Part shown: piece by piece, positions 1,001 to 48,877 of the stretch
How positions within the stretch are numbered: the first letter of the stretch is position 1
How the letters are laid out: every line of letters begins with the position of its first letter
Assembly (NCBI GenBank): GCA_951406725.2
Contig: OX597836.1
Coordinates: 31,868,001-31,932,000, forward strand
Origin: Octopus vulgaris
Lineage: Eukaryota
Direction of reading: 5' to 3'
DNA length: 64,000 bases
Made by a program: the position numbers and the translations under genes
The notes under the pieces: generated by a model
The model's database searches: none
What the model saw: the letters and a program-made list of their open reading frames with translations, nothing else
Told to the model about the DNA's origin: nothing

Positions 1001-1140
1001 TGCCACGTAATTGAGGGTTTGCGTAGCGTTATCCTTTGTATAGATGAAACCATAATAGGGTATTTTGTTTTTGCCATGATTTGAAACAATAATATCAATG
1101 ATAAGTTAGATATGAATGCCTCTAATAACTTCGAATAACT

Positions 1141-1770
1141 GTTTACATTATTTACATAATTTACATTCGACGGATATTTGTCCTCATCTTGTTTGTAAAA
1201 GAAGCAGCACTTATGCTAGGACACAACAACCTCCTAAGCAGACTGAGTGCAGATATGAGCAGCATACGGGAACCGGTATTAAGGAAGGATAGGAAAATAT
1301 TAGATTTATAAGCCCTAAAATTCACTCCGTAATTGCCCATGGGCATATGGCATAGTGGTTAAGAGTGCGAGCTACTAACCCCAAGATTCTAAGTTCGATT
1401 CCAAGCAGTGAGTTGAATAATAATAACAACATTGAAAAATACCTTAGGATTGAGAACCCAGGTTTGAAGAAGGCTGGAGGGTATATCAGCTGCAATGTTG
1501 TAAATAATGTACATAATTCCTCATCTCTTAACCCTTTCGTTACTGTATTTATTTTGAGATGCTCTGTGTTTCTTTCAATTAATTTTAAATACAACAAAGA
1601 ATTTAATAAAAGGACTTAGTTATTAAGCTAGTGTTGGGAACATAAATTGTGACTAAGGTTTGGTGGAAGATTTTAATTCAAAACTTATGAAAACAAGACA
1701 TTTGTTCTATAGAGCCAGAGGAGGTTTTGGCCGGGTTGGTATCAAAAGGGTTAAATATAGAACTGTATTT
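1141..1770 (+). mobile_element. tRNA-headed element with degenerate hammerhead motif (family H), with a short inverted copy of its 3' end at the 5' side; interrupted by a piggyBac MITE
   Basis: A box TGGCATAGTGG at 1348-1358, B box GTTCGATTCC at 1393-1402, (AAT) spacer, then TGAAGA-AGGCTGGAGGGTATATCAGC-TGCAATGTTG (decayed hammerhead). Homologous to 19763-19988 and 35735-36128. Confidence 0.65.
1532..1750. mobile_element. piggyBac-type MITE, copy 1
   Basis: TTAA|CCCTTT...AAAGGG|TTAA: TTAA target-site duplication with CCC/GGG termini. An inverted second copy lies at 33154-33375. Confidence 0.85.
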
Positions 1771-2476
1771 TCGAATAACTGATTTGATAAACAAGGTCAT
1801 TTAAGTTAATGCCCATCACTTGCTGATGTCAATCACAATATATACAATGGTATATATTTTGCTTTAAGTTAACCTTTGCTGAAAGTACTGTTCGCTCATT
1901 GTGTTTCATTCAAAAATGATTTCACTAAAAAATAACTTTGTTCAGGATGAATGGCATCTTTTATTTGTTCTCCCATCATGTAAACCAGTCACGGGTAAAC
2001 TGTGACCTAATAAAAGAATTACCTTGAATATTTCAGTAGTGTGGCCTGCTTGATGGTGAGCCAAGTTTCAAGTGGTACACTTCTCTAAAACAGTGTTGCC
2101 CATCCCGGATGTGAACTATAATGAATGGTTATAATTCTGACTTAATGTGATAAAAAAACATTAGCTGAAGTGGGGTGTCAGTGCAAAATACATAAGCTGG
2201 TATTTTAACAACACATCAACTTTGTCATTTAACCTTTTAGGTGAAGTGTAAGAGGTCAAACAAATAAATCTTTGTAGGATAATGATAAAAAGTAAATAAA
2301 GCTGTAAAGTATTTTCAGAAGTACTTACATATACAAATATATATATCCAGGAATACATACAAAAGCATTTGTACAAATATATACTGAATTATTTATACAT
2401 TAGTATATATAATGTTACAAATACAGGCATTCATCATAAATTAGGAATAAGTTAATGTGTTGTGTATTTTGTATGT

Positions 2477-4172: not shown

Positions 4173-4404
4173 TATATCTTAAAGATTCCATAATGGAATC
4201 ATCTAGAAACAATGAGGAAAAATAATGTAATTTTGCAGCAGAATCTTTGAAATTAACGGAAAATTAATATTAGTAAAATAATGTTTTGGTACTTATTTTA
4301 CACCAAACTGTGAAGTTACAGGGGACACAAACAAACCAACACCAGTTGTTATGTGGTGGTGGGGTGCAAACACTCACACACATGCTGGGCTTCTTTCAGT
4401 TTCT

Positions 4405-4820
4405 TATTTCTTTATTGCCCACAAGGGGCTAAACATAGAGGGGACAAACAAAGACAGACAAAAGGATTAAGTCAATTACATTGACCCCAGTGTGTAACTG
4501 GTACTTAATTTATCGACCCCAAAAGGATGTAAGGCAAAGTCGGCCTCAGCGGAATTTGAACTCAGAATGTAATGACAGACGAAATACCTATTTCTTTACT
4601 ACCCACAAGGGGCTAAACACAGAGAGGACAAACAAGACAGACAAAGGAATTAAGTCAATTATATCGACCCCAGTGCATAACTGATACTTATTTAATCGAC
4701 CCCGAAAGGATTAAAGGCAAAGTCGACCTCGGCGGAATTTGAACTCTGAATGTAACGGCAGATGAAATACGGCTACGCATTTCGCCCGGCGTGCTAACGT
4801 TTCTGCCAGCTCGCCGCCTT
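4405..4820 (-). mobile_element. SINE family B multimer nested in a family A SINE
   Basis: One head plus two bodies, flanked by duplicated TTCTTTCAGTTTCT from the host family A copy (about 4280-4980). Confidence 0.8.
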
Positions 4821-5362
4821 TTTCATTGTTTCTTTCAGTTTCTGCCCACCAAATCCAGTGACAAGGCTTTGGGTTGGCCTTAGGATATAGTAGAAGACAC
4901 TTGCCCTAGGGTACCATGCAGTAGGACTGAACCAAGAACCATGTTGCTGGGAAGGGAACTTCTAACCATGAAACCACACCATTTGATAGGATACTTACTT
5001 GCAAAAGCTCAAGTTTTAAAGTAGAAATTAACCTAAATTAAGAATAATAATAAAAAAAAAAAAGAAAGCAAAAAGAAAACGGAATACAGTTTTGCAAAGT
5101 AGCACACTCTGCTACCTGAAACCTAACCTAACAACCTTGACCTTGGCTGGCATTTCAATGACGGTCCTTCATAGAATCATGAAACCAAAAGTAAATATAA
5201 ACAGAAAGCAGAACAACAAACATTAACATCATTAAATCTTATCCCCTGACTTAACAAAGAAAGCACTGTTTGAGCCATTGTGGTGGTGACTATGAAATAA
5301 CTTGAGAATTACTGGCAGGCTTTCTTGTTTCATCACTTAAACAGTAACAATTTGGAGAGGCC

Positions 5363-5764
5363 ACTATTTACTATTTACTATTTACTATTTTACTTGTTTC
5401 AGTCATTTGACTGTGGCCATGCTGGAGCACCGCCTTTTAGTCAAGCAAATCGACCCAGGGACTTATTCTTTGTAAGCCCAGTACTTATTCTATCGGTCTC
5501 TTTTGCCGAACCGCTAAGTGACGGGGACGTAAACACACAAGCATCGGTTGTCAAGCAATGCTAGGGGGACAAACGCACACACATATATATACATATATAC
5601 GACAGGCTTCTTTCAGTTTCCGTCTACCAAATCCACTCACAAGGCATTGGTCGGCCCGGGGCTATAGCAGAAGACACTTGCCCAAGATGCCACGCAGTGG
5701 GACTGAACCCGCAACCATGTGGTTGGTTAGCAAGCTACTTACCACACAGCCACTCCTGCGCCTA
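5363..5764 (-). mobile_element. SINE family A, full length (tRNA-derived, CORE-like TTGGGCAAGT motif)
   Basis: Head GGCGCAGGAGTGGCTGTGTGGTAAG with B-box-like GGTTCAGTCCC, central TA/TG tract, tail ...GACTGAAACAAGTAAAA. More than 15 related copies occur in the window. Confidence 0.9.
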
Positions 5765-6461
5765 TGTCAGATCAAATAATAATAGAATAATGCCAGTATA
5801 TACACAATTGCCTTCCTTAAAAACATATCTACACTGTATTTAGTCTTGACCGAAATTAGGCCCACAGGGAGCCATTATAGAGATGGACATAACTCCAGAT
5901 ATCTTTATTTATTTCATAACCGTATTTGGTATGAGAACTCTAGTCAATATTCCACAGAAAGAGATTATTTGTAAGCAATTTACAAATGAAACTAAGTTCT
6001 TTTGTGAACAAGTCAAGGACTGATGTATGAAACAAACATTTTAGAATTATTATATGGTTTAGGAATTCCAGGGTTTTGAAGATTGTGGAACTACCTTTTA
6101 ATCACTATTGTTCCTAGATCTACTCTGACCTGGAGTTGTGGCACCCGTTATGGTCCAAGTAATGAGCTAAATAGTATGTAACCACTCATGTGAAGGTACA
6201 TTGAAACCATAGGATGCAGCATGGTGGATGTGAACTATATGAGTTGATGAACTTCATTGGATGCTGAGTGGATGAAGAGACAACAAACTGACAATGGTTA
6301 CGATCAACCAGTTCAGTTAGCAATCTACTGCTACTGTCTGTAGTTGTGTTATGTGCAGATGAGATATTTCAGCTAATGAAAGACCAGTGTGACTGAAACC
6401 CAAGCCAGACATTCATGCCACATTGTTTGATTGGGACATCTGGCATGGGAGGAGTTGCATT

Positions 6462-6645
6462 GGCGGTGAGCTGGCAGAAACGTTAGTCCACCGGGTGAAA
6501 TGCTTAGCGGTATTTCGTCTGCCGTTACGCTCTGAGTTCAAATTCCACCAAGGTCAACTTTGCCTTTCGTCCTTTCGGGGGTTGATTAAATAAGTACCAG
6601 TTACGCACTGGGGTCGATGTAGCCCCTTGTGGGTAATAAAGAAAC
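6462..6645 (+). mobile_element. SINE family B (internally deleted)
   Basis: GGCGGTGAGCTGGCAGAAACGTTAG head, GTTCAAATTCC B box, central domain and AAAGAAA tail. Confidence 0.8.
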
Positions 6646-8030
6646 AAGTAAGTCACCTGACCTAGATGGATGGATGTCGCCTGCCTCTGGGAAACAGCTG
6701 GTAAGAACGTGATAAGTGTTCAGCAAATAAACAGTTATAATTCTTTCTTCTGCTTATCTTCTATTATAATCTATTATAATCCCATTTGTACTCAGTATTC
6801 AGTAATCTATGTTCGTAGATATAAAATGGCACTACAATGTGAAACAAGTTGAAACAATAATCAATTGTGTCTGACAAAACTGATACATAAATTTCTATTT
6901 TGCTTTTCATTTGCGATATTTCATACCTTATTTAACTCTAGGTGTGTTTCGAATATAATAGAAATTCTCTTTTACAGAGACAAAAAGAAATTTATCTGAA
7001 TAACTTGTTAACTGAGAAACTGGTTTATTTTTTTGTTTTTCCTGTAATCTACTTTAGAGAATTATTAATAGTTCAGCGTTTATCTGAAACTTATTCTGCA
7101 TATATTTAACAGTTAAATAAAAGATCTGAAATGCCTCAGATAGATATGAATTCTTGCATTCTTCATTGCTAATGTTTGTCTATTTACAAATAGTTTACTT
7201 CACATAAATGTTCATTTTTTTATGTACAAAAAAATCAAAGATTCTATGTTACAACAGGGGCTAAACACAGAGGGGACAAACAAGGACAGACAAACGGATT
7301 AAGTCGATTACATCGACCCCAGTACATAACTGGTACTTATTTAATCAACCTCGAAAGGATTAAAGGCAAAGTCAACCTCAGTGGATTTTGAACTCAGAAC
7401 ATAAAGGCAGACAAGTTTGACTGAGTTGAAAAGCCAGCTATGAATGATTTTCTACAGTTTAAATTTCTTCGTAATGTGTTAATCTGGTTCAATATATAAC
7501 TTTATTTAGCTAAAGAATAAAATGTTGCTTTTAATCGAAAGCTCATTTTTTTGGTATTATTTCCATTCTATATGCAACTTATGAGAAGCAAGAATTTGTA
7601 TTAAAAGGATCAGAGACACGACCTTCCAGCTGCTAGAAACATTGTTTTATTCTGAGGAATTTCAACCATGTTTCGTGGTCTGCTACCACAACAGCTCCTT
7701 TATAGGATCCAGTTAGCTCAAGACATCAACAGGAGGAATCACATCCGGTTTCGGCCCCTACTTCTTTACCGTTTTGATGTGGTGGGGGTCCCCCTTTCGG
7801 AGGTGTCTTCAGCTCTGGTGTTGGGTGCATGTCTTCTTTCTTCTGTTCCCTGGTCTCATCGATGTAGCGTCAACATCAATTTATGACAAAAACTTAATTT
7901 ACATTTTCATAATTAGCATATAAAATCAAATCGTTCACCAATTGGAAAGACAACAATGACAAAAAAAAAATTAAAAATCAGAGAAAAGATAACGCAGAAT
8001 ATATTGGAAAACATCAGCCAACAAATAAAA

Positions 8031-8444
8031 GGGATCGGTTTGAACGGCAGTTTTTAACATAATTTCTAGGTAACTAAAAAATTTTAAATTTCGTATACTG
8101 GTAAAATGTGTTTATAAAACATCTTTTTTTCTTGCCTTTATTGAGAAAATTCTATAGTTTGTAAGATATTTGTTGTTTTTTTCTTCAATTTCTGCAATTT
8201 CAACCAATCACTGACGTCCATTGAGGTAAACAACATTCTGTGCCGTATGAATATGTCCCTCGTTTAAGAAACAGATTGGGTTTATTTACATTTGTGAAGA
8301 AAAAAAAGATACCCTTCCCCCTACCCCTAACCCTAACCCTAAAATAGATTGAAATGCAATAGATCGATACTAGGGTCATAATAATGGGTGACAATTTCAT
8401 ATGACACCGCTAGAAAAAACTGCCGTTCAAACCGAAAAGATCCC
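8031..8444. mobile_element. MITE with GGATC(TTTTC)GGTTTGAACGGCAGTTTTT TIRs, copy 1
   Basis: Terminal inverted repeats are visible and there is an internal (CCCTAA)3. A near-identical copy lies 300 bp downstream. Confidence 0.85.
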
Positions 8445-8743
8445 AAAAATTTTATAATTTCACCCTCCATCCATCTCAATTTAAAATTTTGAACATTTTT
8501 CAAAATATTTTTTTCCTGTTTAAGATGATGGAGATTCCGAATATGCAAGAAAACACGTTTTCAAAATTTTAAATTCAATAAGCATGCAGATATGTGTATA
8601 AAGAGATAGAGAGATATGAATGTATTCCTAGGGCTAAAAACAACAATAATACCGCCTTCTATAGGACTGCCACATTTAGTTGACAAATATATTTTATGAA
8701 TAAATGGATAAGGATAAATTGATAGACAGACAAATAAATAAAT

Positions 8744-9147
8744 GGGATCTTTTTGGTTTGAATGGCAGTTTTTAACATAACTTCTAGGTAAATAAAAAAA
8801 TTTAAACTTCGTATACCGGTAGAATGTGTTTATAAAACATATCTTTCTCTTGGCTTTATAGTTTGTAAGATATTTGTTGTTTTTTTCTTCAATTTCTGCA
8901 ATTTCAACCAATCAATGACGTCTATTGAGGTAAAAAAAACATTCTGTGCCGTATGAATGTGTCCCTCGTTTAAGAAACAGATTGGGTTTATTTACATTTG
9001 TGAAGAAAAAAGATACCCTTCCCCCCACCCCTAACTCTAACCCTAAAACAGATTGAAATGCAATAGATCGATACTAGGGTCATAATTATGGGTGACACTT
9101 TCATATGACACCGCGAGAAAAAACTGCCGTTCAAACCGAAAAGATCC
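8744..9147. mobile_element. Same MITE, copy 2
   Basis: Same TIRs and body in direct orientation, with a small internal deletion. Confidence 0.85.
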
Positions 9148-9402
9148 AATAAATGGAGGAAAAAGTTTGAAATTTAAAATTGGAGAGGTTGAAATTTGAG
9201 GCCCTAATTAAACTTTATAACAATCATTAAACATTAAAGATTTGTTTCTCATAAAATGGAGTATATTTAATTTACATTAAATTGTTAATTACGGTTATTT
9301 AAGGCAAACACAAGCAAAATGCCAATTGTTTTCACTTTAATGATTTTGTCTGTATTTAATTTCGATTTGCATATGTTCGTCAATTCGCTACAATCTCTTT
9401 TG

Positions 9403-9708
9403 AGGCACATAGCCTAGTAGTTAGAGCAGCAAACTCACGGTCGAGGGATCGCGGGTTCGAATCTCAGACCAGGAATGTGTGTGTTAATGAGCAAAACACT
9501 TAAGAAGCTCCATGCAGCTCCAGCAGAAGGTAATGGCGAACTTCTGTTTACTCTTTCACCACAACTTTCTCTCACCCTTTCCTCCTGCATCTTGCAGCTC
9601 ACCTGCGACGGACCGGCGTCTCGTCCAGGTGGGGAACCTATACGCCAAGGAAAACAGGAAACCGACCTTTATGAGCCAGGAATGGCTTGAGAAGGAACAA
9701 ACAACAAA
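9403..9708 (+). mobile_element. SINE family C (tRNA-derived, V-domain-like TGAGCAARACACTT)
   Basis: A box TAGCCTAGTAG, B box GGTTCGAATCTC, tail GAGAAGGAACAAACAAC. Relatives at 23034, 23693, 32520(-) and 49430(-). Confidence 0.75.
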
Positions 9709-9765
9709 TTAGGGGGAGGGGTGAAATTAAAGAAAAAATTTTTTTTGCATATTCGTGACCCTCAA

Positions 9766-10440
9766 AATGATAAAGGGGAAATTTTTCTTTGAAAAAATTT
9801 TTAATCCGTGATTTTGGAACGTGGCCCCACCCTACCTCACCAGGACCATCACCATTAATTCCGTCACACCATGTTATAATATTCCATACGTTTGAAACAC
9901 ATGTAATCTGCATTTTTAAAGAGGCAAAATTAGTCAAAAAATTTCATGATCACCAGCCTCGGTTAAAAAATTCTTTTTCACTTCAGAATTAAACCTTTTC
10001 ATTTCAACATCAAAAACGTAGGAATCCAGAAAAAAAATTTCCAAAAAAATACATTTTTCTCGGAGAAGTGCGATTCTGCATTAGCCCCTAAAGTTTTGTT
10101 AGAAACATGTGAAAACTTCCACGTGATTTCCAGTAGTTGCATGCAGCATGCTGAATTTTTCAAATTGTAATGATAATTTATGGACACCATGTATGTATAT
10201 AAAAGAATAAACAACTATATATATATATACGATCGGCGTCTTTCAGTTTCCATCTACCATATTCACTCACAAGGCTTTGGTTGATCCAAAGCTATAGTGG
10301 AAGACATCTGCCCAAGGTGCCACTACGTGGGACTGAACCCGGAACTATGTGATTGGGAAGCAAGATTCTTACCACACAGCCAGTGTGTGCATATATATAT
10401 ATATGCATATACAATGTGTGCATATATATATATATATAGG

Positions 10441-10479
<39 letters not shown>

Positions 10480-12318
10480 CAAGCTTCTTTTAGTTTCCGT
10501 CTACCTAATCCAGTCGCAAAGCTTTGGATTGGACTGAGGCTGTAGCAAATGACACTTGCCCAAAGGTGCTTTATAGTGGAACTGAACCCAGAGTCATGCT
10601 GTTTGAAAGCAAACCATTTTGCCACACATTTACACCTGTTCGGCAAGGTCTTTCATATGTCAGGAGATGGTCGAACATTCGCAGGTGCATTCTTTTGTTT
10701 GAATATATAAAAATAAATGCACTTTCTGTAAGCTTCCGAGAATGACGTCATGTATTGTGAAATCACCTGGCACAGGTTTGACACTTGCTGTAATGTTTTA
10801 TTTTACAAAATGGCAAAAAGTGGAAAAAAAAATAAAATAAAAAATAAAATAAAACATGGGGTAAATATTGTTTCACAGCTATTTCGGAATGGCTGTCCCA
10901 CATAAGTTGGATTTTTCTCCCTTTTCAGCGGGATTTTTCAGAAATCTTTTTTTGCACCCACTGCTTCAAATTGATATTGGTGAAATTTTTCTTTGAAAAA
11001 AATTTTTAATCCGTGATTTTGGAACGTGTCCCCACCCTATCTCACCGGCACCATCACCATTAATTCCGTCACCCCATGTTATAATAATCTATACATTGAA
11101 ACACATGTAATCTGCATTTTTAAAGAGGCAAAATTAGTCAAAAAATTTCATGATCACCAGCCTCGGTTAAAAAATTCTTTTTCACTTCAGAATTAAACCT
11201 TTTCATTTCAACATCAAAAACGTAGGAATCCAGAAAAAAAATTTCCAAAAAAATACATTTTTCTCGGAGAAGTGCGATTCTGCATTAGCCCCTAAAGTTT
11301 TGTTAGAAACATGTGAAGACTTCCACGTTGTTTCCAGTAGTTGCATGCAGCATGCTGAATTTTTCAAATTGTAATGATAATTTATGGACACCATGTATGT
11401 ATATAAAAGAATAAACAACTATATATATACAATGGGCTTCTTTCAGTTTCCGTCTACCATATTCACTCACAAGGCTTTGGTTTATCCAAAGCTATAGTGG
11501 AAGATATCTGCCCAAGGTGCCACTACGTGGGACTGAACCCGGAACTATGTGATTGGGAAGCAAGCTTCTTACCACACAGCCAGTGTGTGCATATATATAT
11601 ATATGCATATATATATATATGTATGCATATATTGGCCTACTCGCTTAGCCAGTGGGGTGGCGTCATTCGAAGGCTAAAACAATGCGAACGCATTGTGACC
11701 AGCGATGTGTAGCAACATCTGATAGTTTGGTCGGTCACGTGATCACGTGATATGCATATATATATATATGCATATATATAATGTGTGCATATATATATAT
11801 ATATGTGCATATATATATATATATATATTGGCACGCACACACTCACACACACACACAACAAGCTTTTAGTTTCCGTTTACCTAATCCAGTCGCAAAGCTT
11901 TGGATTGGACTGAGGCTGTAGCAAATGACGCTTACCCAAAGGTGCTTTATAGTGGAACTGAACCCAGAATCATGTTCTTTGAAAGCAAACCATTTTGCCA
12001 CACATTTACACCTGTTCGGCAAGGTCGTTCATATGTCAGGAGATGGTCGAACATTCGCTTGTGCATTCTTTTGTTTGAAAAAGAATAAACAACTATATAT
12101 ATATATACGATCGGCGTCTTTCAGTTTCCATCTACCATATTCACTCACAAGGCTTTGGTTGATCCAAAGCTATAGTGGAAGACATCTGCCCAAGGTGCCA
12201 CTACGTGGGACTGAACCCGGAACTATGTGATTGGGAAGCAAGATTCTTACCACACAGCAAGTGTGTGCATATATATATATATGCATATACAATGTGTGCA
12301 TATATATATATATATAGG

Positions 12319-12353
<35 letters not shown>

Positions 12354-14580
12354 CAAGCTTCTTTTAGTTTCCGTCTACCTAATCCAGTCGCAAAGCTTTG
12401 GATTGGACTGAGGCTGTAGCAAATGACACTTGCCCAAAGGTGCTTTATAGTGGAACCAAACCCAGAGTCATGCTGTTTGAAAGCAAACCATTTTGCCACA
12501 CATTTACACCCGTTCGGCAAGGTCTTTCATATGTCAGGAGATGGTCGAACATTCGCAGGTGCATTCTTTTGTTTGAATATATAAAAATAAATGCACTTTC
12601 TGTAAGCTTCCGAGAATGACGTCATGTATTGTGAAATCACCTGGCACAGGTTTGACACTTGCTGTAATGTTTTATTTTACAAAATGGCAAAAAGTGGAAA
12701 AAAAAATAAAATAAAAAATAAAATAAAACATGGGGTAAATATTGTTTCACAGCTATTTCGGAATGGCTGTCCCACATAAGTTGGATTTTTCTCCCTTTTC
12801 AGCGGGATTTTTCAGAAATCTTTTTTTGCACCCACTGCTTCAAATTGATAATGGGGAAATTTTTCTTTGAAAAAATTTTTAATCCGTGATTTTGGAACGT
12901 GTCCCCACCCTATCTCACCGGCACCATCACCATTAATTCTGTCACCCCATGTTATAATAATCTATACATTGAAACACATGTAATCTGCATTTTTAAAGAG
13001 GCAAAATTAGTCAAAAAATTTCATGATCACCAGCCTCGGTTAAAAAATTCTTTTTCACTTCAGAATTAAACCTTTTCATTTCAACATCAAAAACGTAGGA
13101 ATCCAGAAAAAAAAATTTCCAAAAAAATACATTTTTCTCGGAGAAGTGCAATTCTGCATTAGCCCCTAAAGTTTTGTTAGAAACATGTGAAGACTTTCAC
13201 GTTGTTTCCAGTAGTTGCATGCAGCATGCTGAATTTTTCAAATTGTAATGATAATTTATGGACACCATGTATGTATATAAAAGAATAAACAACTATATAT
13301 ATACAATGGGCTTCTTTCAGTTTCCGTCTACCATATTCACTCACAAGGCTTTGGTTTATCCAAAGCTATAGTGGAAGATATCTGCCCAAGGTGCCACTAC
13401 GTGGGACTGAACCCGGAACTATGTGATTGGGAAGCAAGCTTCTTACCACACAGCCAGTGTGTGCATATATATATATATATGCATATATATATATGTATGC
13501 ATATATTGGCCTACTCGCTTAGCCAGTGGGGTGGCGTCATTCGAAGGCTAAAACAATGCGAACGCATTGTGACCAGCGATGTGTAGCAACATCTGATAGT
13601 TTGGTCGGTCACGTGATCACGTGATATGCATATATATATATATGCATATATATAATGTGTGCATATATATATATATATATGCATATATATATATATATAT
13701 AGGCACGCACACACTCACACACACACACACAACAAGCTTTTAGTTTCCGTTTACCTAATCCAGTCGCAAAGCTTTGGATTGGACTGAGGCTGTAGCAAAT
13801 GACGCTTACCCAAAGGTGCTTTATAGTGGAACTGAACCCAGAATCATGTTCTTTGAAAGCAAACCATTTTGCCACACATTTACACCTGTTCGGCAAGGTC
13901 GTTCATATGTCAGGAGATGGTCGAACATTCGCTTGTGCATTCTTTTGTTTGAATATATAAAAATAAATGCACTTTCTGTAAGCTTCCGAGAATGACGTCA
14001 TGTATTGTGAAATCACCTGACACAGGTTTGACACTTTCTGTAATGTTTTATTTTACAAATTGGCAAAAAGTGAAAAAAAAAAAATAAATAAATAAAATAA
14101 AACATGGGGTAAATATTGTTTCACTATTTCAAAATTCATTTACTTATTTTGCCGTGTAGAAAAAGGGAAGGATTTTACAGAATGGTAAAAGGGGGAAAAT
14201 ATAAGATTCATAATTCTAGGGCGAAAAAAATAAAGAAAAATTATGTGCGACAGCTATTTCGGAATGGCTGTCCCACATAATTTGGATTTTTCTCCGTTTT
14301 CGGCGGGATTTTTCAGAAATCTTTTTTTGCACCCACTGCTTCAAAATGATAATGGGGAAATTTTTCTTTGAAAAAATTTTTAATCCGTGATTTTGGAACG
14401 TGGCCCCACCCTACCTCACCGGGACTATCACCATTAATTCCATCACCCCATGTTAAAATATTCCATACATTTGAAACACATGTAATCTGCATTTTTTAAA
14501 GAGGCAAAATTAGTCAAAAAACTTCATGATCACCGGCCTCGGTTAACAAATTCTTTTTCACTTCAGAATTAAACCTTTTC
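9766..14580 (+). repeat. Nested tandem segmental duplication (periods ~1204 bp and ~1874 bp) built from an unknown repeat plus family A SINE halves
   Basis: Near-identical ORF pairs are offset by 1874 (10524/12398, 11497/13371, 11900/13774) and by 1204 (9999/11203). The block GAAAAAATTTTTAATCCGTGATTTTGGAACG occurs four times. Confidence 0.93.
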
Positions 14581-15280
14581 TTTTCAAACTTTTTTTACAT
14601 TTATAAAAAGTAAATGAATTTTAAAGTAAGAGTGGAACTATATTTACCCCCATATTTAGTGAAAAAAAAGTGTTTTAATGAGAACTCAGAATATCACATA
14701 ATGTACTACTGACAAACAAATTTACTATAGAATTACAAATCATCCTGTATGAGAATAAAAGAATAAACTAAAATAATATATCTTACCTTCACATTAAATT
14801 TATATCCCATTACGGTTTCAAAGCAGTTTCATACGGATTTTTTCTCTTCTAATTTTCTTTTCTAGCAGCCAAAAAGTTAAAAAAACACATTTGACGGAAA
14901 ATAGGGTCAGTTTTTTTTTCCCAGAATGGGTGTGGTTATTTGAATTTAATTACAATGTGTGGGCCGTTACATTACTATTTTGTCGACTCTTCAGGGTATT
15001 ATAAAGAGAACTTGCTGCTTTAGTTTCTAGAGAATGTCAACATTTACATAGATATATCGTTCACAAACGGGTCTATCAAGGCGGACTGTTTGAATTGATT
15101 TAGAGCTAAATGTGTGTATGTGTAAACCTAAAGTGTACACACACAGATCTGTTTGCTGTTGAAACTTTTATTTGAATAGATGATAAGAAACGGGATATAT
15201 ATGAATGCGTGTGACCTTTCCATATGAAGGGTTTTAACGGTAAGCTATATTATCGCCTATAATTCGTATAATTTCTTTTA

Positions 15281-16206: not shown

Positions 16207-18008
16207 GTAGCACCAACAATCATAAAATTCATAGAGCACTCTATGAATAAATGGCAAACAGTCCTACACCTCCAAACAAAAGAGGGACTCATGAAAACCA
16301 AAGACATCCCCATTAGAAGAGGAATATTCCAGGGAGACACGCTCTCTCCACTCCTTTTCTGCTTGGCACTGTCACCTCTATCTGATATGCTAAATAGAAC
16401 TGGATGCGGATATAAATGTTACGGCAAAACGATCAGCCACCTTTTATATATGGATGACCTAAAACTATACGCTGCAAATGACAAACAGCTGGAAACACTA
16501 TTAAAGACAGTTCATGGATTTACCAAAGAAATAGATATGAAATTTGGATTAGAAAAATGCGCCAAAGTAACCTTGAAAAGAGGAAAACTAGTTAAGAGTA
16601 ACAACATCACACTAGATAAAACCAATGAAATAAAAGAATTAGACCAAAGCCAAACTTACAAATACTTAGGAATCCATGAACTAGATAAGACACAACACAC
16701 ACAAATGAAAGAGAACATAAAAAAAGAATATTATAGACGAGTTAGATCAATACTAAAAACAGAGCTCAATGCTAAAAACAAGATAATAGGTATCAACACT
16801 TTAGCTGTCCCAGTTATAAGTTACAGCTACAATATCCTTAACTGGACACGAAATTAACTGTCCAAAATAGATAGGAAAACAAGAAAAATACTGACAGGAT
16901 CTAGGATGCATCACCCAAAATCTGACATAGAAAGACTATATATACAACGTATAGAAGGTGGTAGAGGCCTTATACAGCTGGAAAACTACTATAAAATAAC
17001 CACCATAGGACTGCAAAAATACCTACTTCAGAAGGAAGGAAAACTGATCCAGATAGCAGCAAAACACGAGCAAAACAAAAAACTGTTCTCAGTATTTAAG
17101 GAAGCTGACAAATACAAACAAGAAATCATACCACCTAATAAACACAAAGAAGAAGAAGAAGATGATGAAGAAACAACAAAAGCTATAGAACAAATGAAAT
17201 CCAAACTAAAAATAGAACAGCAACGAGCCATGATAAAACGATGGCAAGAAAAGCCCCTTCATGGTAAATACTGGACTAAACTAAACGCAAAAGAAATAGA
17301 CAAAGAAAAATCCCAGCAATGGTTGAGAAGCTCAGGACTCAAAGCAGAAACAGAGGGATTTTTAATTGCAGCACAAGACCAAAGCCTCCCCACCAGAAAT
17401 TACCAAAAACATGTAATGAAAAGAAATATTACAAGTAACTGCAGAATATGTGGAGATGGACAAGAAACAATAAATCATATTATCTCTAGCTGCCCAGTCC
17501 TGGCTAAGAAGGAATATATTCACAGACATGACAGAGTTGGAACCTACATACATTGGAAGCTATGCCAACATTATGGAATAACAACAGAAAAAAGATGGTA
17601 TAGGCACACACCAGAAAAGGTCACAGAAAACGAGAAAGCAACCATACTCTGGGATATGCCGATACACACAGATAGAGAAATTAAGGCCAACAGACCAGAT
17701 ATAGTTGTCAGAGATCATGAAGAAAAAAATGCTTTCTAATTGATGTATCAATACCGGCAGATGACAACGTGTCTCTAAAAGAAATGGAGAAACTCTCAAA
17801 ATACAAAGACCTGGAAATAGAGGTAACTAGAATGTGGAACCTGAAAACAGAAACAATTCCTATCATAGTAGGTGCATTAGGCATGATAAAAAAATATTCA
17901 GACAAATACATAACAAAAACACCAGGACTTACAAACACATATAACATACAGAAAATTGCACTACTAGGCACTGCACACATCCTACGCAGAACACTTTCCA
18001 TACAATAA
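16207..18008 (+). pseudogene. Dong-type RT-endonuclease ORF broken by one in-frame stop (16855-16857) and one frameshift in an A-run (~17725)
   Basis: ORFs 16243-16857 and 16906-17739 share a frame. ORF 17769-18008 is shifted and restores KKCFLIDVSIPADDNVSLKEMEKLSKY. Confidence 0.9.
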
Positions 18009-19762: not shown

Positions 19763-19988
19763 TTCCTAAGGTATTTTTTGATGTTATTATTGTTAGTGTT
19801 CAGGTTACTGCTTGGAATTGAACTCGGAATCTTGGGGTTAGTAGACCATGCTCTTAACCCCTATGTCATACAGCCATGGGCAATTATGGAGTGAATTTTA
19901 GGGCTTATAAATCTAATATTTTTCTATCTTTCCTTAATACCGGTTCCCATATGCTGCTCATATCTGCACTTGGTCTGCTTAGGAGGTT
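19763..19988 (-). mobile_element. Family H element, partial (upstream region plus tRNA-like head)
   Basis: Reverse-complement homology to 1230-1450. Confidence 0.8.
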
Positions 19989-31753: not shown

Positions 31754-33153
31754 TACCAGGTTGACTCAAAAGGATCGTTTTTGATTTTCACTGATTTTTG
31801 GCAACTTCTATCTCCATGTTACATTGATTTCAAATTTTTGGCACAGGCCCAGCAGTTTCAGGGGAGGGAGTAAGTTGATTACATTGACTCACCGCTTAGC
31901 TGATAGTTATTTTATCGACTCCAAAAGGACGAAAGGCAAAGTTGATGTTGGCAGAATTTGAATCCAGAGCGTAAAGACAGATAAAATGCTGCTACACATT
32001 TTTCCTGGCATGCTAACGATTCTGCCAGCTATCTATCTTATTTTGATTCTCTTTTACTCTTTTACTTGTTTCAGTCATTTGACTGTGGCCATACTGGAGC
32101 ACCACCTTTAGTCGAGCAAATCGACCCCAGGACTTATTCTTTGTAAGCCTAGTACTTATTTTATCAGTCTCTTTTGCTGAACCGCTAAGTTACGGGGACA
32201 TAAACACACTAGCATCGGTTGTCAAGCAATGTTGGGGGGACAAACACAGACATACAAATGTATACACACACACATACATATATATACATATACATGTATA
32301 TGACAAGCTTCTTTCAGTTTCCATCTACCAAATCCACTCACAAAGCTTTGGTTGGCCCGAGGCTATAGTAGAAGACAATTGCCCAAGCAAGCTACTTACC
32401 ACACAGCCACTCCTTAATTCAATACAACTTGTGCAATCGTCACTGAATAGTTTAGTCGTTATTTTATGGTTTTGAGTGGTGAAAAAATTGCAATGAGAGC
32501 CATTTAATGCTACCTGTGGAAACGAGTTCTAAGGACTGGACGTCCTTGATGATGGGGATTGCAGTTGATCCGATTACTGGAACAATCTGCTCGGAAAATT
32601 ATCATGCATGTGGCTGAACACTCCACAGACATGTGGATTCAGTGAGTACTCCATAGACACTGAGGGATTCAGTGCAACACAGTGTGAGACAAGGCCAACC
32701 CTTTGAAATACAGGTACTACTCGTTTTTGCTAGCTGAGTGGACTGGAGCAACGTGAAATAAAGTGTCTTGCTCAAGGACACAATGCGTCTTTGAAGACAC
32801 TTGCTCCCATAACTTCCAAAATAAATTTTGGTTTTTGTGGAGCATCAAAGTTGGGAACAAAAGTAGGACAGTGGTAACATACAAGGAAACCGAACAAAAA
32901 CAAACATGGAGGGTCATTACACCGGAACAAGGGGGAAAATTGTGAATGCTGGAAGAAATATTTTCTTTGAAAAGAGAAAAGATAGAAGAGAGGGACAGTA
33001 GATGTCAGGTCCTTAGAACATTGGGTAGGAAAAGAAAGATGGTCACGTGAGGAAAAGAAAAGGTGTGTAAGTGAACGAGAAGTTTGGGTTCTTCATCAAC
33101 GAACATCTTTTATTACACTTACCATTTTCTCTTTATACTGATAGATCTTTTAA

Positions 33154-33375
33154 CCCTTTTGTTACCAACCCAGCTGAAACCGGCTCTGGCTCTGTAGTAC
33201 AAATGTCTTGTTTTCAGAATTTTTGGAATTAAAATCTTCCACCAAACCTTAGTCACAATTTATGTTCCTAACACTAGATTAATGATAACTAAGTTATTTT
33301 ACTAAATTCTTTGTTATATTTAAAGTGATTGAAAGAAACACAGAGCATCTCAAAATAAAAACGGTAATAAAAGGG
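33154..33375. mobile_element. piggyBac-type MITE, copy 2 (inverted relative to 1532-1750)
   Basis: TTAA|CCCTTT...AAAGGG|TTAA; the body is the reverse complement of copy 1. Confidence 0.85.
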
Positions 33376-34067
33376 TTAAGGAGCTTAGGTGTTTCGCTCA
33401 TAAACACACACAACACCCGATCTGAGATTCGAAGCCATGATCCCTCGACCCCAAGTCCACTACTCTAACCACTAGGCCATGTGCCACGACGCCTACATTA
33501 CTATTGTAAAACTATTCATTTGCAGCACATGACTGCATAGTCAATATCACCATACTCTTTCTCGTTATGCAAGTAGCTTAGTGAATATCTAAATTGTATG
33601 CACACGTAATTTTTCAATTGTGAAATAAAAGCAAATGAAAAGAACAAAGAGAATAAAAAGCTTGTATACCTTTTCATAGCTTTTCGACATTTTCCTCTCT
33701 CTCTCTCTGTGTGGACAAAACAACATTTGTGAAGTATCAACATAACAAAGCCTGCAATTATAGGAAAATTCAGACAATGAAAATAATAACATAAAAAGCA
33801 GAACAAAGCCTTTGTAATCATGGCATTTCATCTATTTAGAAAATTATCATTGTTACTCTGTGGTGTAAGTAATTTGTTATAAATAAATTTGGATATAAGT
33901 ATATCAAACAAAACGACTTAGTAGTTACTGTGCTGATATAGAACATATATAAAAACGTATCAGTATGAAGGTTACTTCACATGGCTCTGGCAGAAGATAA
34001 TGGTGAACTTCTGCTGACTCTTACGCCACATTCATTTTTTTTTCTCCTGCATCTAGTAGCACACCAT

Positions 34068-34908: not shown

Positions 34909-35752
34909 GTAGAAATTGAGATTGTATTACTCATTTAAAGTTCTACAGAAATTGCGAATTGCTATCTTGATGTCAATAGGTATAGTGTCATTCCCCACAC
35001 CACCTCTCTCTCCGTCTCCCTTCCTCTCATCCTCACTCGCTCTCCATTCTATCTTCAATTTCTTTCTCTTCTCCTCCTTTCTCTTTTAATCTGTCTTCTT
35101 CTTCTTCTCCACCTCAATCCTTCCCTCTCTTACTCTTCAGACAATTAACCTCCTTAGGCATGGTCATCAGCTATAAACATAATCTTATCTTCTCGATCGT
35201 TTCTTCTTCTTTTTTTCTTCTTTTTTTTCCATCACAGTTAATTAAAAAGCGGGTAATTTTCATCTGCTAAATATTAAAATAATGGCATTATTACAGAAAA
35301 CAGAAAACAGAAAAAAAAAAAGCAAGAGAGACTGTCTCAAAGACAGCATTAGATATAGAAAGATTGGTGTTGATAAGATAGAGCGCAGATAAGGGGGGAA
35401 TATGTGAAGCCAAGAGAGACAGAAAGAAAGGTTGAAAGCACAAGAAATGAGTGAGAAACAAATACAAGGAGACATGTAGGAGACAAGAATTAATTAGGGG
35501 AAGAGTTAGCCGATAGAACTCAAAGAAAACATTGTTATCAGTGATGTTGTTCATGGTTTTGGCAATGATGTCTAAACAAATTAAAGGACTACAAATAAGA
35601 GTTGTTCTTGTAATGCATCAAGCTGGTCTGACGTTGTTACCTGCCCCTGTTTTTTTTCCTCTTTTTTTTTCTTGGACCTTTAAGACTCCTAAGACTAGTT
35701 TCACAACAATTCCTCTGAGAGGGGCGCCAGTCAATGTTTGTTTGTTGTTAAC

Positions 35753-35797
35753 ACACAACGTTTCGGCTGATATTTCCTCCAGCCTTCATCAGGTGTC
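35753..35797 (-). ncRNA. Putative minimal type I hammerhead ribozyme in a family H element (35735-36128)
   Basis: Minus strand: ACAC-CUGAUGA-(A)GGCUG[loop]CAGCC-GAAA-C-GUU-GUGU. Stem I has 4 bp and stem II 5 bp; stem III is a loopless palindrome (AACGUU), as in Penelope-type minimal hammerheads. Confidence 0.6.
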
Positions 35798-36031
35798 TTG
35801 GGGGAAATTTCGAACCTGGGTTCTCATTCCTGAGGTATTTTTCGACCTTCTTCTTCTTCTTCGTCTTCTTCCTCCACCCCCTCCTCTTCTTCTTCCTCCA
35901 CTCCTCCTCTTCCCTCTCCTCCTCTTCTTCTTCCTCCACCTCCTCCTCTTCCCTCTCCTCTTCTTCTTCCTCCTCCCCCTCCTTCTTCTCATTATTATTA
36001 TTATTATCATTATCATCATCATCATCATTAC

Positions 36032-36079
<48 letters not shown>

Positions 36080-36737
36080 CATTATTATTATTATTCAGGT
36101 CACTGCTTGGAATCGAACTCGGAATCTGAGTTTCTTATGTGGCACTGGTACCAGTGATATAATCAAGTAATGTGCCTAACAGCTTTTATAATCTGTTATG
36201 GATCTATGGTTGAATGATTAATCCTGGCTCTCAATTGGGATTTGAAACCCTAGGTTATGCTGAATGGTTTAACAGGAGCTGACAAGCCAGCTCACCACCT
36301 TGTATGATCACCAATGTCAATAACAACATTACAATATGCTTGACATCTTACATTGACACAAAGATTTAAAAAAAATTCTTGTGGGAAGAATTACAATCAG
36401 TTAAAACTTAATCCCAATTTTGTATTTCACCAACCTTTGAAAGAATAAATTTTCAATTGCCTTCACTTGGATTTGAACTAGGAACAAATGAATAGCTGTA
36501 ACTAACTAACTACTGTACTGCATTTTATTTTATTGCCACAACAATTCTGTTAAGCTATCACAGCATTATATAATTGACAACTGTTTTTATTAGAGATTTC
36601 CAAATCTTTCATCCTAGATTTAATTCAGAAGACATTAAAATCATTGATAAATATTTCCCAAGAACATCAGTCATGTTCTGCAACCATGAAAAAGAGAATC
36701 TCTTTGATTCTACAATATTAAATCTTTAATCAAATGC

Positions 36738-37631: not shown

Positions 37632-39198
37632 CATCATCATTATCATCATCATCGTTTAGCATCCGTTTTCCATGCTGGCATGGATTGGACGGTTTTACTG
37701 AGCTCTGGACAGCCAGTGGCTGCACCAGGCTCCAATCTGATCTGGCAAGTTTTCTACAGCTAGATGCCCTTCCTAATGCCAACCACTCAGAGAGTGTAGT
37801 GGGTACTTTTTATGTGCCACTGGCGCAGGAGCCAGTCAGAGGGTACTAGCATCGATCACATTTAGATAGTGCTTTTTACATGCCACTGGCACAGGAGCCA
37901 GCCAGTGGGTACTGGCATCAGCCATGTTGAGATGGTCCTTTTTATGTGCCACTGGCACAGGAGCCCGTCAGGCAATCCTGGCATCAATCCCATTTGGATA
38001 ATGCGTTTTACATGCTACTGGCATGGGAGCCAATCAGAGGGCACAGGCATCAGCCACGTTCAGATGGTGCTTTTTACATGCCACCAGCATGGTAGCCAGC
38101 CAGTCAGGCAGGCCTGGCATCGATCATATTCGGATAGTGCTTTTTACATGCCAGCAGCACAGGACCTAGTCAGGCGGGCCTGGCATCGATCATGTTCAGA
38201 TAGTGCTTTTTACATGCCACTAGCACAGGAGCTAGTCAGGGGGCACAGGCATCGGTCCCATTCGGATAGTGCTTTTTACATGCCAGCAGCACAGGACCTA
38301 GTCAGGGGCCACAGGCATCGATCACGTTCAGATAGTGCCTTTTACATGCCACCAGCACAGGACCTAGTCAGGCGGGCCTGGCATCGATCACGTTCAAATA
38401 GTGCTTTTTACATGCCACTAGCACAGGACCTAGTCAGGGGGCACAGGCATCGACCACGTTCAGATAGTGCTTTTTACATGCCACTAGCACAGGACCTAGT
38501 CAGGCGGGCCTGGCATCGACCACGTTCAGATAGTGCTTTTTACATGCCACTAGCACAGGCCCTAGTCAGGGGGCACAGGCATCGATCACGTTCAGATAGT
38601 GCTTTTTACATGCCAGCAGCACAGGACCTAGTCAGGCGGGCCTGGCATCGATCACGTTCAGATAGTGCTTTTTACATGCCACTAGCACAGGAGCTAGTCA
38701 GGGGGCACAGGCATCGATCATATTCGGATAGTGCTTTTTACATGCCACTAGCACAGGACCTAGTCAGGGGGCACAGGCATCGATCACGTTCAGATAGTGC
38801 CTTTTACATGCCACTAGCACAGGACCTAGTCAGGCGGGCCTGGCATCGGTCCCATTCGGATAGTGCTTTTTACATGCCACTAGCACAGGCCCTAGTCAGG
38901 GGGCACAGGCATCGATCACGTTCAGATAGTGCTTTTTACATGCCACTAGCACAGGACCTAGTCAGGGGGCACAGGCATCGATCACGTTCAGATAGTGCTT
39001 TTTACATGCCACTAGCACAGGACCTAGTCAGGGGGCACAGGCATCGATCATGTTCAGATAGTGCTTTTTACATGCCACTAGCACAGGAACTAGTCAGGGG
39101 GCACAGGCATCGATCATATTCGGATAGTGCTTTTCACATACCACCAGCACAGGAGCCAGTCAGGCATCCCTGGCATCGATCACATTTGGATAGTGCTT
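37632..39198 (-). mobile_element. Family D element with an expanded internal 66-bp tandem array (~21 units, ~16 homogeneous)
   Basis: The family D tail at 37632-37800 leads directly into units GGCATCGATCACGTTCAGATAGTGCTTTTTACATGCCACTAGCACAGGACCTAGTCAGGGGGCACA. Confidence 0.92.
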
Positions 39199-40107
39199 GA
39201 TTATAAAATATTGACAATATAAAATATTCTAATCATTGGAATAAATTACTCCAGTATGTTTTAAAAGATACAAACTATAATTAATGATACTGGAATGTAA
39301 TAGAAACTGACAGTAAGTGAAGAGATGTTTTATTACATTGGGATATTTTTCATGAAAAATTAATTGACATTGTCAACAGTTTTAGACATGAAATTTTTAA
39401 TGACTACTGTAAAAAAATTGTTGAAATCAAAATGAAAAAATTAAATTATGCTTAATTAAAGATTTTCTAATTTTAGTTATTAATTTGCTGAAAATTAACT
39501 CTCAATAAGAAATGCAACTCTTGTTTTATATCGGAAAAAAAAACCCACTCCAAAATGTATTAATCATTTTTAAATGCTCTGGGTTAATGATAATAAATTT
39601 ATGGTAATACTTAAAATATAATTAGAATAATACTCCAGAATCGTGGCTGTGTGGTAAGAAGTTTGCTTCCCAACCACAGTGTTCTAGGTTCAGTCCCACT
39701 GCATGGCATGTTGGACAAGTGTGTTTTACTATAGCCTTCGGTTGACCAAAGCCTTGTGAGTGGATTTGGTAGACAGAAATTGAAAGAGGCTTCTGTGTGT
39801 CTGTCTCCAACCATTGCTTAACAACCAGTGTTGGTGTGTTTATGTCCCAATAACTTAGCAGTTCAGGAAAAGAGACCAGTAGAATAAGTACCAGGCTTAA
39901 AAAAACAATTCTGGGCACAATTTGTTCAACTAAATATTCTTCAAAGTGGTGCCCCAGCATGGCCGTAGTCTAATCACTGAAACCAGTAAAAAAAAAATTG
40001 AGCAAATGAAAAGTCAAAAGAACAAGAAATTCAAAGAATCTTGAAAATATTTTCCCTTCAAAAGTGAAATATATCTCAAGTAATTTGAAGTGAAACTAAA
40101 TTTTAGT

Positions 40108-43975: not shown

Positions 43976-44441
43976 CATTACATGTTTACACTATATTCTA
44001 TGTTGACTTGTATATCAGAAAACACAATATGAATGGTCTCAATTATTTGCCATAACCTAATATCATACACTACTTTCCAGCACTCAATCAAACAAGAAGC
44101 CCAAATGTGTTTACAAAATTGGCCAAGTCAGACAAATTATACTAGAAAACTTATAACTGTTTGCTTTCTAACACAATCTACACAATCTACAACACATACA
44201 AAAAATCCCAAAATGCTATCAATACTATTTTTGTCAAAGAGTGATAAATTTGTACTCTACCAAATGCATTGAGTAAATCTCCAATTTAATGTAAAATTGT
44301 CTCTATTATACCATAAAAACAAACATTAATATATACATATATATAAATTTACATCTAATGTAGGATAAAATTTTTTCGAAAAAAAAATTTTATCAATGGC
44401 CAGCATATTAAAAAATTCCATTAAAGGTTAAATTTATAAAC

Positions 44442-44777
44442 AACTTATAAATAACGGCAAATGAAAAAATTTCAAATGTCAAATATGCCGAAATTAGACA
44501 CATTGTCCATAACCATATAATTTATCACAATAAGCATGCTACTTGAAAAAGGTCGACAGAAATCTCTAAAAAAATTCCATTATTACCATATCAGACCGAT
44601 TTCAGGGTTGGTTCATAAGAACCCTCCCTTCGTCAGTGATAAATATGGCTAAAGAAATAAATGAAATACTTACTCATACCCATGCTTGTTGTGATAAATT
44701 ATATGGTTATGGACAATGTGTCTAATTTCGGCATATTTGGCATTTGAAATTTTTTCGTTTGCCCTTATTTATAAGTT
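44442..44777. repeat. ~96-bp near-perfect inverted repeat with 143-bp loop (Penelope-like inverted pseudo-LTR)
   Basis: 44442-44537 versus 44681-44777, with only a few mismatches. Confidence 0.9.
44589..44641 (-). ncRNA. Putative minimal type I hammerhead ribozyme
   Basis: Minus strand: UAUCA-CUGACGA-AGGG(AG)GGUUC[UUAU]GAACC(AA)CCCU-GAAA-UCG-GUC-UGAUA. The catalytic core is complete, with 5-bp stem I, 4+5-bp stem II, GUC cleavage triplet and near-palindromic stem III. Confidence 0.75.
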
Positions 44778-44800
44778 ATATATATATATATATCCATATA

Positions 44801-47630: not shown

Positions 47631-48877
47631 CACAAGGCCAGCATACTTGGGGGAAGGCCCAAATCAATTAACTCGACTCCCATAGCTCAACTGGCACTTA
47701 TTTTATCAACCCTGAAAGGAATTGATAAAACCACTACGCCAATATGCCATATGCCCATCTGAAAGGAAAGAAAGGCAAAGTTGACTTTGACAGAATTTGA
47801 ACTCAGAACATAAAGATGGACAAAATGCCACCAAGTATTTTGCATTTTGCCTGGCATTGCTAATGGTTCTGCCAGCTCACCATTTGACCAACATCTCTAA
47901 TATAAGACTGCTTACAGTTTCTTTAACTTATATTTCACACAGGTTTCTGTCTCACAAAAATTTCCCAAAAGATAATTAGTTTGCAGTTCTTGTTTACTTA
48001 TTCCTAAAATATACAACATAAGACTAACAACAACTTAATCTTTATTCTTCAAAATCTTGCCAACCATTTTTCTTTTCCCTCTTTTTTTTTTTCGATCTTG
48101 TCCTTTCATATAAATATTTGTTTTTGAATCCTTTACCAGCTTTCATAATTTCATATGCCACAAATCAATACTGTTGTATATATATAAATATTTAAATACA
48201 AACATATTTTTTTAAAATCATCATTTAGTTTATGCGTATTGAGGCCTTTCAGGAAAACAACATTAAATGTCTGCAGAAATTTTTACTGAAATATATTTTC
48301 CAATTTTTCCCCCACAATTTTATATTTTTCTCATATCTTTTTCATGAAATAAATTAAAATGTGATAAATCTCTTTTTTTTTTTGTTCTTTATTTAAAATA
48401 TGAAATACGGTTTCACAGGTTTCTTTCAAGCAAAACTATCAACTTTGGATGATTCTTAGAAAAATAAATAGCCACACTATCTTTCTACAGAAAGTCTACA
48501 TCAAATTCAGAAAGATATGGTGACACTTGAGGACAGTCATGGACACATGTTTCTGTCTGGATGAGCATCATCAGATTAGCAATTATATTACCTTATCTTC
48601 AGTAGTCGAGGGACCAGCATCCTAGTATAGACTTGGGAGTGTTGCAGTACGAACAAGGACAGAACATAGTAATTGTAGTCATATGTTGAGTTGTTCCCAC
48701 ACCATTTCTGAAAACCAGCCTGACATAACAAGATTTGATAATACCATTGTTAAAGATTACACTGTGCTCACTGTCCAACAGGAAAACTTATTTCTCTAAC
48801 TTCTCTATTGAGTGGAATGGCAGAATTTTTAAATAGTCAATGGTGGGTTTTGTACCACCTTTTTACAGAGCCATACT

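Follow-up and report, generated by a model that had tools for sequence, protein, structure and literature searches.

What kind of mobile element joins a tRNA-like head to a hammerhead ribozyme, and why does the sequence upstream of the head travel with it? The question is raised by a repeat near the left end of a 64,000-nt stretch of Octopus vulgaris DNA (contig OX597836.1, positions 31,868,001 to 31,932,000, assembly GCA_951406725.2; here called the window), which has a GC content of ~36% and is rich in microsatellites. The first-pass annotation took three copies in the window for a non-coding, self-cleaving element that RNA polymerase III (Pol III) drives and that is related to retrozymes. 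Family-level evidence was drawn from the contigs of eight public runs, in two sets of four, aligned to copy 1 (1110-1530); where a contig continued beyond its aligned part, here called a loose end, the 30 letters past it were revealed as well. Contigs matching copy 1 numbered 17,506 in run X1, 20,635 in run X9 and 4,250-14,812 in the four runs of the second set. These numbers show that the family is large; copy number is not derivable from them, and summed contig depths were left out as a measure of it.

The locus of copy 1 holds a single insertion spanning 1142-1769, composed of an inverted 5' arm, a forward body, a later MITE and the remainder of a tail. It is bounded by a 12-bp target-site duplication, the left part at 1130-1141 (+) being an exact repeat of the right part at 1770-1781 (+) and flush with the insertion end; the word occurs twice in the window, and a 12-mer was shared by chance in 330 of 20,000 random 40-nt pairs. 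The inverted arm (1142-1196, -) equals the 3' end of the element minus a 30-nt tail. From the window sequence alone only 19-25 nt of it match (arms 1137-1161/1494-1518); the joint of 1196 to 1501 on the opposite strand was seen in 8, 9, 5 and 2 contigs in the four runs of the first set, so that the inverted piece of its own 3' end noticed earlier at 1141-1197 is real. The forward body (1196-1527, +) lies between this arm and the MITE and carries two deletions, of ~20 nt at 1468 and ~41 nt at 1501. The first part of the element's 3' end (1501-1527, +) follows the second deletion, with a loose end behind 1501 in 52 contigs (agreement 0.86). An unrelated MITE with TTAA ends, presumably of the piggyBac type judging by those ends, was later inserted at 1528-1754 (terminal inverted repeats of 16 nt at 1528-1543/1739-1754; second copy at ~33140-33380). 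Beyond it stands the rest of the tail (1755-1769, +), which matches the reverse complement of the family's loose end before 1147. The insertion had been thought to end at 1531, and its actual end at 1769 lies across the MITE, where the duplication bounds it.

The tail is one-sided, since the forward end has it and the inverted arm stops ~30 nt short. According to the available parts of PMC8557442 and PMC11167929, Penelope-like elements (PLEs) are marked by an inverted copy next to the element and by a tail of 30-40 nt on one of its ends; copy 1 shows both a 5'-truncated inverted arm and such a tail. In the anole element PAc, tail length is reported to equal the gap between two internal start sites of reverse transcription (PMC11167929, in part). 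The 12-bp duplication, the inverted arm, the one-sided tail and the minimal hammerhead described below bear out the Penelope-type mobilisation that had been suspected. Copy 1 itself is truncated, decayed, dead DNA.

Copies 1 and 2 are 86% identical over 235 columns (E 4e-76), and copy 3 aligns with copy 1 as three separate stretches (E 2e-11, 2e-9 and 2e-4). The claim of three homologous copies with a common layout therefore stands as regards homology and fails as regards layout, the upstream segment and the A box being present only in copies 1 and 2, as copy 3 starts at 36127. Copy 2 (19763-19988, -) consists of the ORF end, a spacer, the tRNA-like head and (AAT)n, its 3' part being replaced by the end of another abundant repeat, and the sequence downstream of its head matches ~20 other sites in the window. 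Copy 3 (35735-36127, -) begins inside the tRNA-like head and continues with a ~250-nt microsatellite spacer, an ATG and an intact minimal hammerhead core at 35753-35797. In this spacer (35845-36095, -), AAT has grown to ~250 nt while shifting from AAT to GAT to GAG/GAA units. No convincing target duplication was found for copy 2, and none for copy 3. The head is preceded by 145 nt in copy 1 and by ~113 nt in copy 2; neither copy starts at its tRNA-related head as a SINE does.

The core of copy 3 (35753-35797, hit at 35792, -) passes a strict minimal-hammerhead descriptor, which matched twice in the window and in none of 60 block-shuffled control windows. Its fold has a z of -2.9; helix I is 4 bp long, A9 is followed by an extra base, and the four bases of helix III form a palindrome. 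The minimal hammerheads of metazoan PLE terminal repeats, as far as the available part of PMC4209133 describes them, have in common with it a helix I of 4-5 bp, the extra base between 9 and 10.1, the G10.1-C11.1 pair, the palindromic 15.2-16.2 and the lack of loop 3; their helix II has 7-8 bp, whereas that of the octopus hammerhead has 5-6 bp and the whole is preceded by a Pol III-type head. In copy 1, a broken minimal type I hammerhead lies at 1465-1501 (+), with stem II recognisable, CpG-type decay and a fold z of -0.2. Alignment to copy 3 shows that the ~20-nt deletion at 1468 takes out the 5' strand of stem I together with CUGAU. Of the hammerhead states described in the first-pass annotation, the intact core in copy 3 and the absence from the 19.8-kb copy hold, and "decayed" is right for copy 1 except that the damage is mainly this deletion; judged by what is left of it, copy 1 cannot self-cleave.

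The family-majority hammerhead is intact when the missing letters are supplied from the loose ends of the first set at 1468 (169 and 215 contigs, agreement 0.74-0.75) and at 1196 (239 and 183 contigs, agreement 0.65-0.68), and copy 3 differs from it in loop II and not in stem II. A minimal hammerhead in the terminal repeat, as PLEs have it, is thus found both in copy 3 and in the family majority. Rfam, which had been proposed as a check, found no hammerhead at E<=10 in the hammerhead stretch. The PAc hammerhead is cleaved only with protein and is dispensable for insertion in vitro (PMC11167929, in part), and minimal hammerheads cleave poorly as monomers (PMC4209133, in part), so that self-cleavage need not drive the octopus family. 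By analogy, its hammerhead is probably active only as a dimer or with the help of protein.

A second, unrelated type I hammerhead-like motif lies at 44600-44641 (-), with a 5-bp helix I and a long helix II (fold z -2.85, 0 of 200 shuffles). It sits in the 142-nt gap of a fold-back element at 44429-44790, the 110-nt arms of which are 93% complementary.

The tRNA-like head occupies 1341-1413 (+), with an A box at 1348-1358 and a B box at 1393-1401, and the predicted tRNA position 1 is placed at 1341 by the usual offset from an A box at 1348. Both boxes fit the consensus in copy 1, and internal boxes of this kind are a feature of tRNA-derived SINEs. An (AAT)n spacer follows at 1416-1430 (+), which is much expanded in copy 3. 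ARAGORN found no tRNA gene in the window, none of the 130 Rfam matches in the whole window was a hammerhead or a tRNA, and no tRNA was found at E<=10 in the head stretch. A cloverleaf fold of the head is absent (z 0.9 and -0.5), the acceptor and T stems being unfolded. No T4 run occurs on the sense strand in 332, 226 and 111 nt, which is compatible with Pol III in stretches too short for this to count. Single contigs span the ORF end to the head (1213-1411 and 1228-1423) and the head to the hammerhead edge (1312-1464 and 1336-1468); with such bridges, the tie between the tRNA-like head and the hammerhead is confirmed.

Several other repeats share the window. Two short stretches, at 47739-47758 and 33462-33485 (-), match the part of the head that holds the A box and are probably other tRNA-derived repeats. 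Long (AAT)n tracts flank a broken non-LTR retrotransposon ORF at 16207-17739 (+; Pfam RVT_1 E 1e-15, zf-RVT E 3e-6), which we take to be Dong/R4-like from its look. A 444-codon open frame at 37866-39200 (-) is a tandem repeat of ~25-26 codons and probably a minisatellite, and near-identical translated stretches ~1.87 kb apart at ~10000-14200 (10323/12170 and 11407/13281) suggest a local tandem duplication.

What precedes the head appears to be coding. The upstream segment of copy 1 (1196-1311, +) has 37 open codons followed by TAA at 1309-1311, and the frame is open in copy 2 too; the spacer from the stop codon to the head (1312-1340, +) is identical in copy 2 at 28 of 29 positions. Copy 1 is 5'-truncated at 1196. 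The family continues upstream of that point with one 30-letter consensus in 5-6 of the 8 runs among the rows listed (61, 5 and 8 contigs in the first set and 50, 71 and 31 in the second; agreement 0.76-0.95), and the continuing sequence is not found elsewhere in the window. A 25-residue reading, composed in frame from the window, the family's loose-end letters and the majority letter at 1211, was set without gaps against the last endonuclease block of PLEs (the E...N block in Fig. S2 of PMC8557442, seen in part); in this comparison by hand, which carries no statistical control, 10 of 25 residues are identical in PoseidonFr and 9 of 25 in Pglau_0662. In the same hand alignment the conserved Glu of the block is present and the conserved Asn is replaced by Ser. 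The upstream segment is thus likely the C-terminus, with stop, of a Penelope/Poseidon-type GIY-YIG endonuclease ORF, as read from the sequence.

Protein searches with the 37-40-residue peptide gave no relevant match at E<=10, with none in Pfam or PDB and a top Atlas score of 0.80. The sole match, P0002, was rejected as spurious, being a four-fold repeat protein in which single stretches are weak. Neither a reverse transcriptase, which in EN+ PLEs is telomerase-related and encoded in one ORF, nor a full ORF was seen in the window copies, which are truncated, or in the family contigs; a motif scan of the window revealed no further recognisable PLE coding piece, and a 21-nt family motif had no match in metagenome and viral contigs.

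On the other side of the head, a predicted ORF start codon lies at 1450-1452 (+), which is ATG in the family and in copy 3 and TTG in copy 1; position 1450 is A in ~99% of the depth in all four runs of the first set, against T in copy 1. When the pieces are joined by hand, the frame opened by this ATG crosses the hammerhead and reaches the end of the tail, 52 codons with no stop among them. A short intron in the tail had been considered and was dropped, as the frame is open without one. The ORF of PAc likewise starts at the hammerhead, and the ends of PAc insertions lie 111-118 nt inside the ORF, with the tail in addition (PMC11167929, in part); the two ends of the octopus family lie ~125 and ~155 nt into the predicted ORF. 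An ORF end with its stop, then the tRNA-like head and (AAT)n, then an ORF start overlapping the hammerhead, and last the tail: this order reads as the terminal repeat of a PLE. In such a unit the ORF end stands ahead of the head, which would explain why upstream sequence travels with it.

The element had been called non-coding, a property expected of a SINE and one that does not agree with an ORF end with stop upstream of the head, in a family that extends further upstream, and an ATG-led open frame downstream. A wholly non-coding hybrid of Pol III SINE and retrozyme, in which the upstream segment would be part of a circular or tandem unit, has a precedent for the pairing of Pol III and hammerhead in Schistosoma Sm-alpha, and would suit the many family copies that begin at the head. 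It is nevertheless highly improbable, because what precedes the head looks like the C-terminal end of an endonuclease, stop included, and extends further upstream, and because the hammerhead is overlapped by a start codon and an open frame.

A related possibility is a non-autonomous, internally deleted Penelope derivative, in which the head and hammerhead would be flanked by nothing more than the two ORF ends, and which would be copied in tandem or circular form by the enzymes of another element, much as retrozymes are. The lack of any visible full ORF and the absence of the peptide from the protein records searched agree with this, as does the derivation of animal retrozymes from PLE terminal repeats (bioRxiv 10.64898/2026.07.22.740005, in part). 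The frame, however, is open, and the family variants listed for 1198-1308 introduce no stop; moreover the window is without a tandem unit. We therefore regard such a derivative as quite improbable. Retrozymes carry a hammerhead in at least two consecutive tandem units, whereas all three window copies are single; neither a retrozyme nor the tandem or circular replication suggested at first is supported, no tandem array or circular form having been seen. Tandem or partly tandem copies, which form pseudo-LTRs in PLEs, are absent from the window.

Where family copies begin can be read from contigs that join arm to body, as insertions with an inverted arm are frequent and such contigs show the start points of the body. 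In the main listing of the second set, 10 of 13 junctions fall within 1333-1344, with 0.7 expected if they were uniform (13 of 15 rows were used, one opposite-strand row and one internal deletion being dropped). Adding the 8 distinct rows among 12 from a second listing, with 4 duplicates dropped, gives 13 of 21 (expected 1.2); these counts cover the best-supported rows among those listed, beside which 65 and 70 further rows exist. The first set gave 8 of 12 junctions in the head cluster after landings at the deletions of copy 1 were dropped, a count that shares loci with that of the second set and is not independent of it. Most simply read, this means that the tRNA-like head formed the 5' end of many templates. 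A SINE-like population of short copies is thereby supported indirectly, through the clustering of junctions at the tRNA 5' end. Pol III initiation is the preferred cause of such ends, with RNase P cutting or reverse-transcriptase drop-off as alternatives.

The pile-up may also be viewed differently. An alternative upstream sequence joins at 1334, seen as a loose end in 5 contigs of the first set, and landings could accumulate at the head through a subfamily whose upstream part differs in this way; without the landings at 1333-1334, 10 of 18 still lie within the remaining head cluster. It is conceivable, though unlikely, that an ordinary Penelope once took up into its terminal repeat a SINE or retro-pseudogene of tRNA origin, (AAT)n tail included, in which case the head would be a passenger. 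The 5' pile-up would then result from an RNase P cut at the tRNA-like fold of a Pol II RNA, from reverse-transcriptase drop-off or from the collapse of subfamilies in alignment. Such a capture is favoured by the second upstream sequence at 1334 and by the resemblance of the head with (AAT)n to a minimal SINE. SINE uptake into terminal repeats has been proposed for Cassandra, Ajax and Helenus (available part of PMC10886601), and promoters are already present in PLE terminal repeats (available part of PMC6765202). Against it, the landings are scattered from 1333 to 1344 rather than placed at one base, and of the 5 cluster rows for which the intervening letters are known, 4 have no more than 3 foreign letters ahead of the head. 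In addition, copy 1 has consensus A and B boxes but unfolded acceptor and T stems, which fits a promoter better than an RNase P substrate.

Other signs of subfamilies were seen in runs X16, X17 and X4, namely a divergent head with a joint 1196-1371; in X16, a different sequence takes the place of the 3' half of the hammerhead (29 contigs, agreement 0.59).

With a probability of roughly 0.55, the family is best explained as the terminal repeat of a Penelope element, in which a head likely used by Pol III gives rise to short copies resembling SINEs, copy 1 having come from a longer RNA. The tRNA-derived head would be a likely start site for RNA polymerase III within the terminal repeat of a likely coding Penelope/Poseidon-type element. 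The element's protein may bind the start of its own ORF and begin reverse transcription inside the RNA, as it does in vitro for anole PAc, giving rise to the short and the tailed ends. Two classes of template would be served by one and the same Penelope machinery: copies 1 and 2 would stem from long RNAs covering the ORF end, the many short copies from short RNAs that begin at the head. With internal priming, a Pol III transcript could extend into any flank and would not depend on a 3' tail of the SINE type.

A bolder extension is that an autonomous Penelope uses the tRNA-derived Pol III promoter of its terminal repeat both for the full coding RNA and for an inbuilt SINE. Where copies are in tandem, the head would lie ~110 nt ahead of the start codon. 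We consider this dual use doubtful.

Penelope/Poseidon EN+ PLEs such as PAc of Anolis carolinensis share with the octopus family what is likely a C-terminal GIY-YIG end, the terminal-repeat hammerhead overlapping the ORF start (a predicted one in octopus), the inverted 5' arm, the one-sided 30-40-nt tail and an AT-rich target, whereas the A/B-box head with (AAT)n between stop and start codons sets the octopus family apart and is not mentioned in the available parts of PMC11167929 and PMC8557442. It differs further in the Ser in place of the conserved Asn of Poseidon-type endonucleases, and no full ORF was seen for the octopus element. The Schistosoma repeats Sm-alpha and Sj-alpha (PMC2770079 and PMC6765202, both in part) also combine a tRNA-related Pol III promoter with a type I hammerhead in an abundant short repeat. 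They are described there as non-coding and often tandem, with cleavage releasing monomers, in contrast to the octopus family, where the head belongs to the terminal part of an element that likely codes for protein and the copies, which are dispersed, have inverted arms.

Cassandra, Helenus and Ajax (TRIMp3) similarly have a small-RNA-derived Pol III promoter in a retroelement terminal repeat; according to the available part of PMC10886601 they are non-autonomous LTR elements with PBS and PPT, whose autonomous partners are expected to use Pol II. Animal non-LTR retrozymes (bioRxiv 10.64898/2026.07.22.740005; PMC7229834; both in part) have in common the type I hammerhead and the relation to PLEs, but they form circular RNA and tandem arrays in which every unit has a hammerhead, none of which was seen here, and "tRNA" and "promoter" do not occur in the main text of the preprint. 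A full-text literature search, most subscription papers lying outside its scope, found no paper on a tRNA-headed PLE terminal repeat. The supplements of PMC13282606 and PMC8967140, too small to serve as repeat libraries, do not contain the family motifs, nor does that of PMC8557442. The family may already be catalogued in Repbase, Dfam or the O. vulgaris library (PMC13282606), which comprises 190 PLE families.

If the preferred reading of a Penelope terminal repeat with a tRNA head is true, it would provide a direct route to a SINE-like family from a coding element of another class. SINEs are commonly taught to be Pol III parasites of LINEs that imitate the LINE 3' tail; here no tail mimicry would be needed. 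The more doubtful dual use, if true, would make one sequence both an autonomous element and its own non-autonomous parasite, enabled by internal priming. For annotation, short copies starting at the head would be classed as SINEs though they are PLE ends. The preferred reading would also be relevant to the transcription of PLEs and to how Pol III-hammerhead repeats, Sm-alpha among them, arose.
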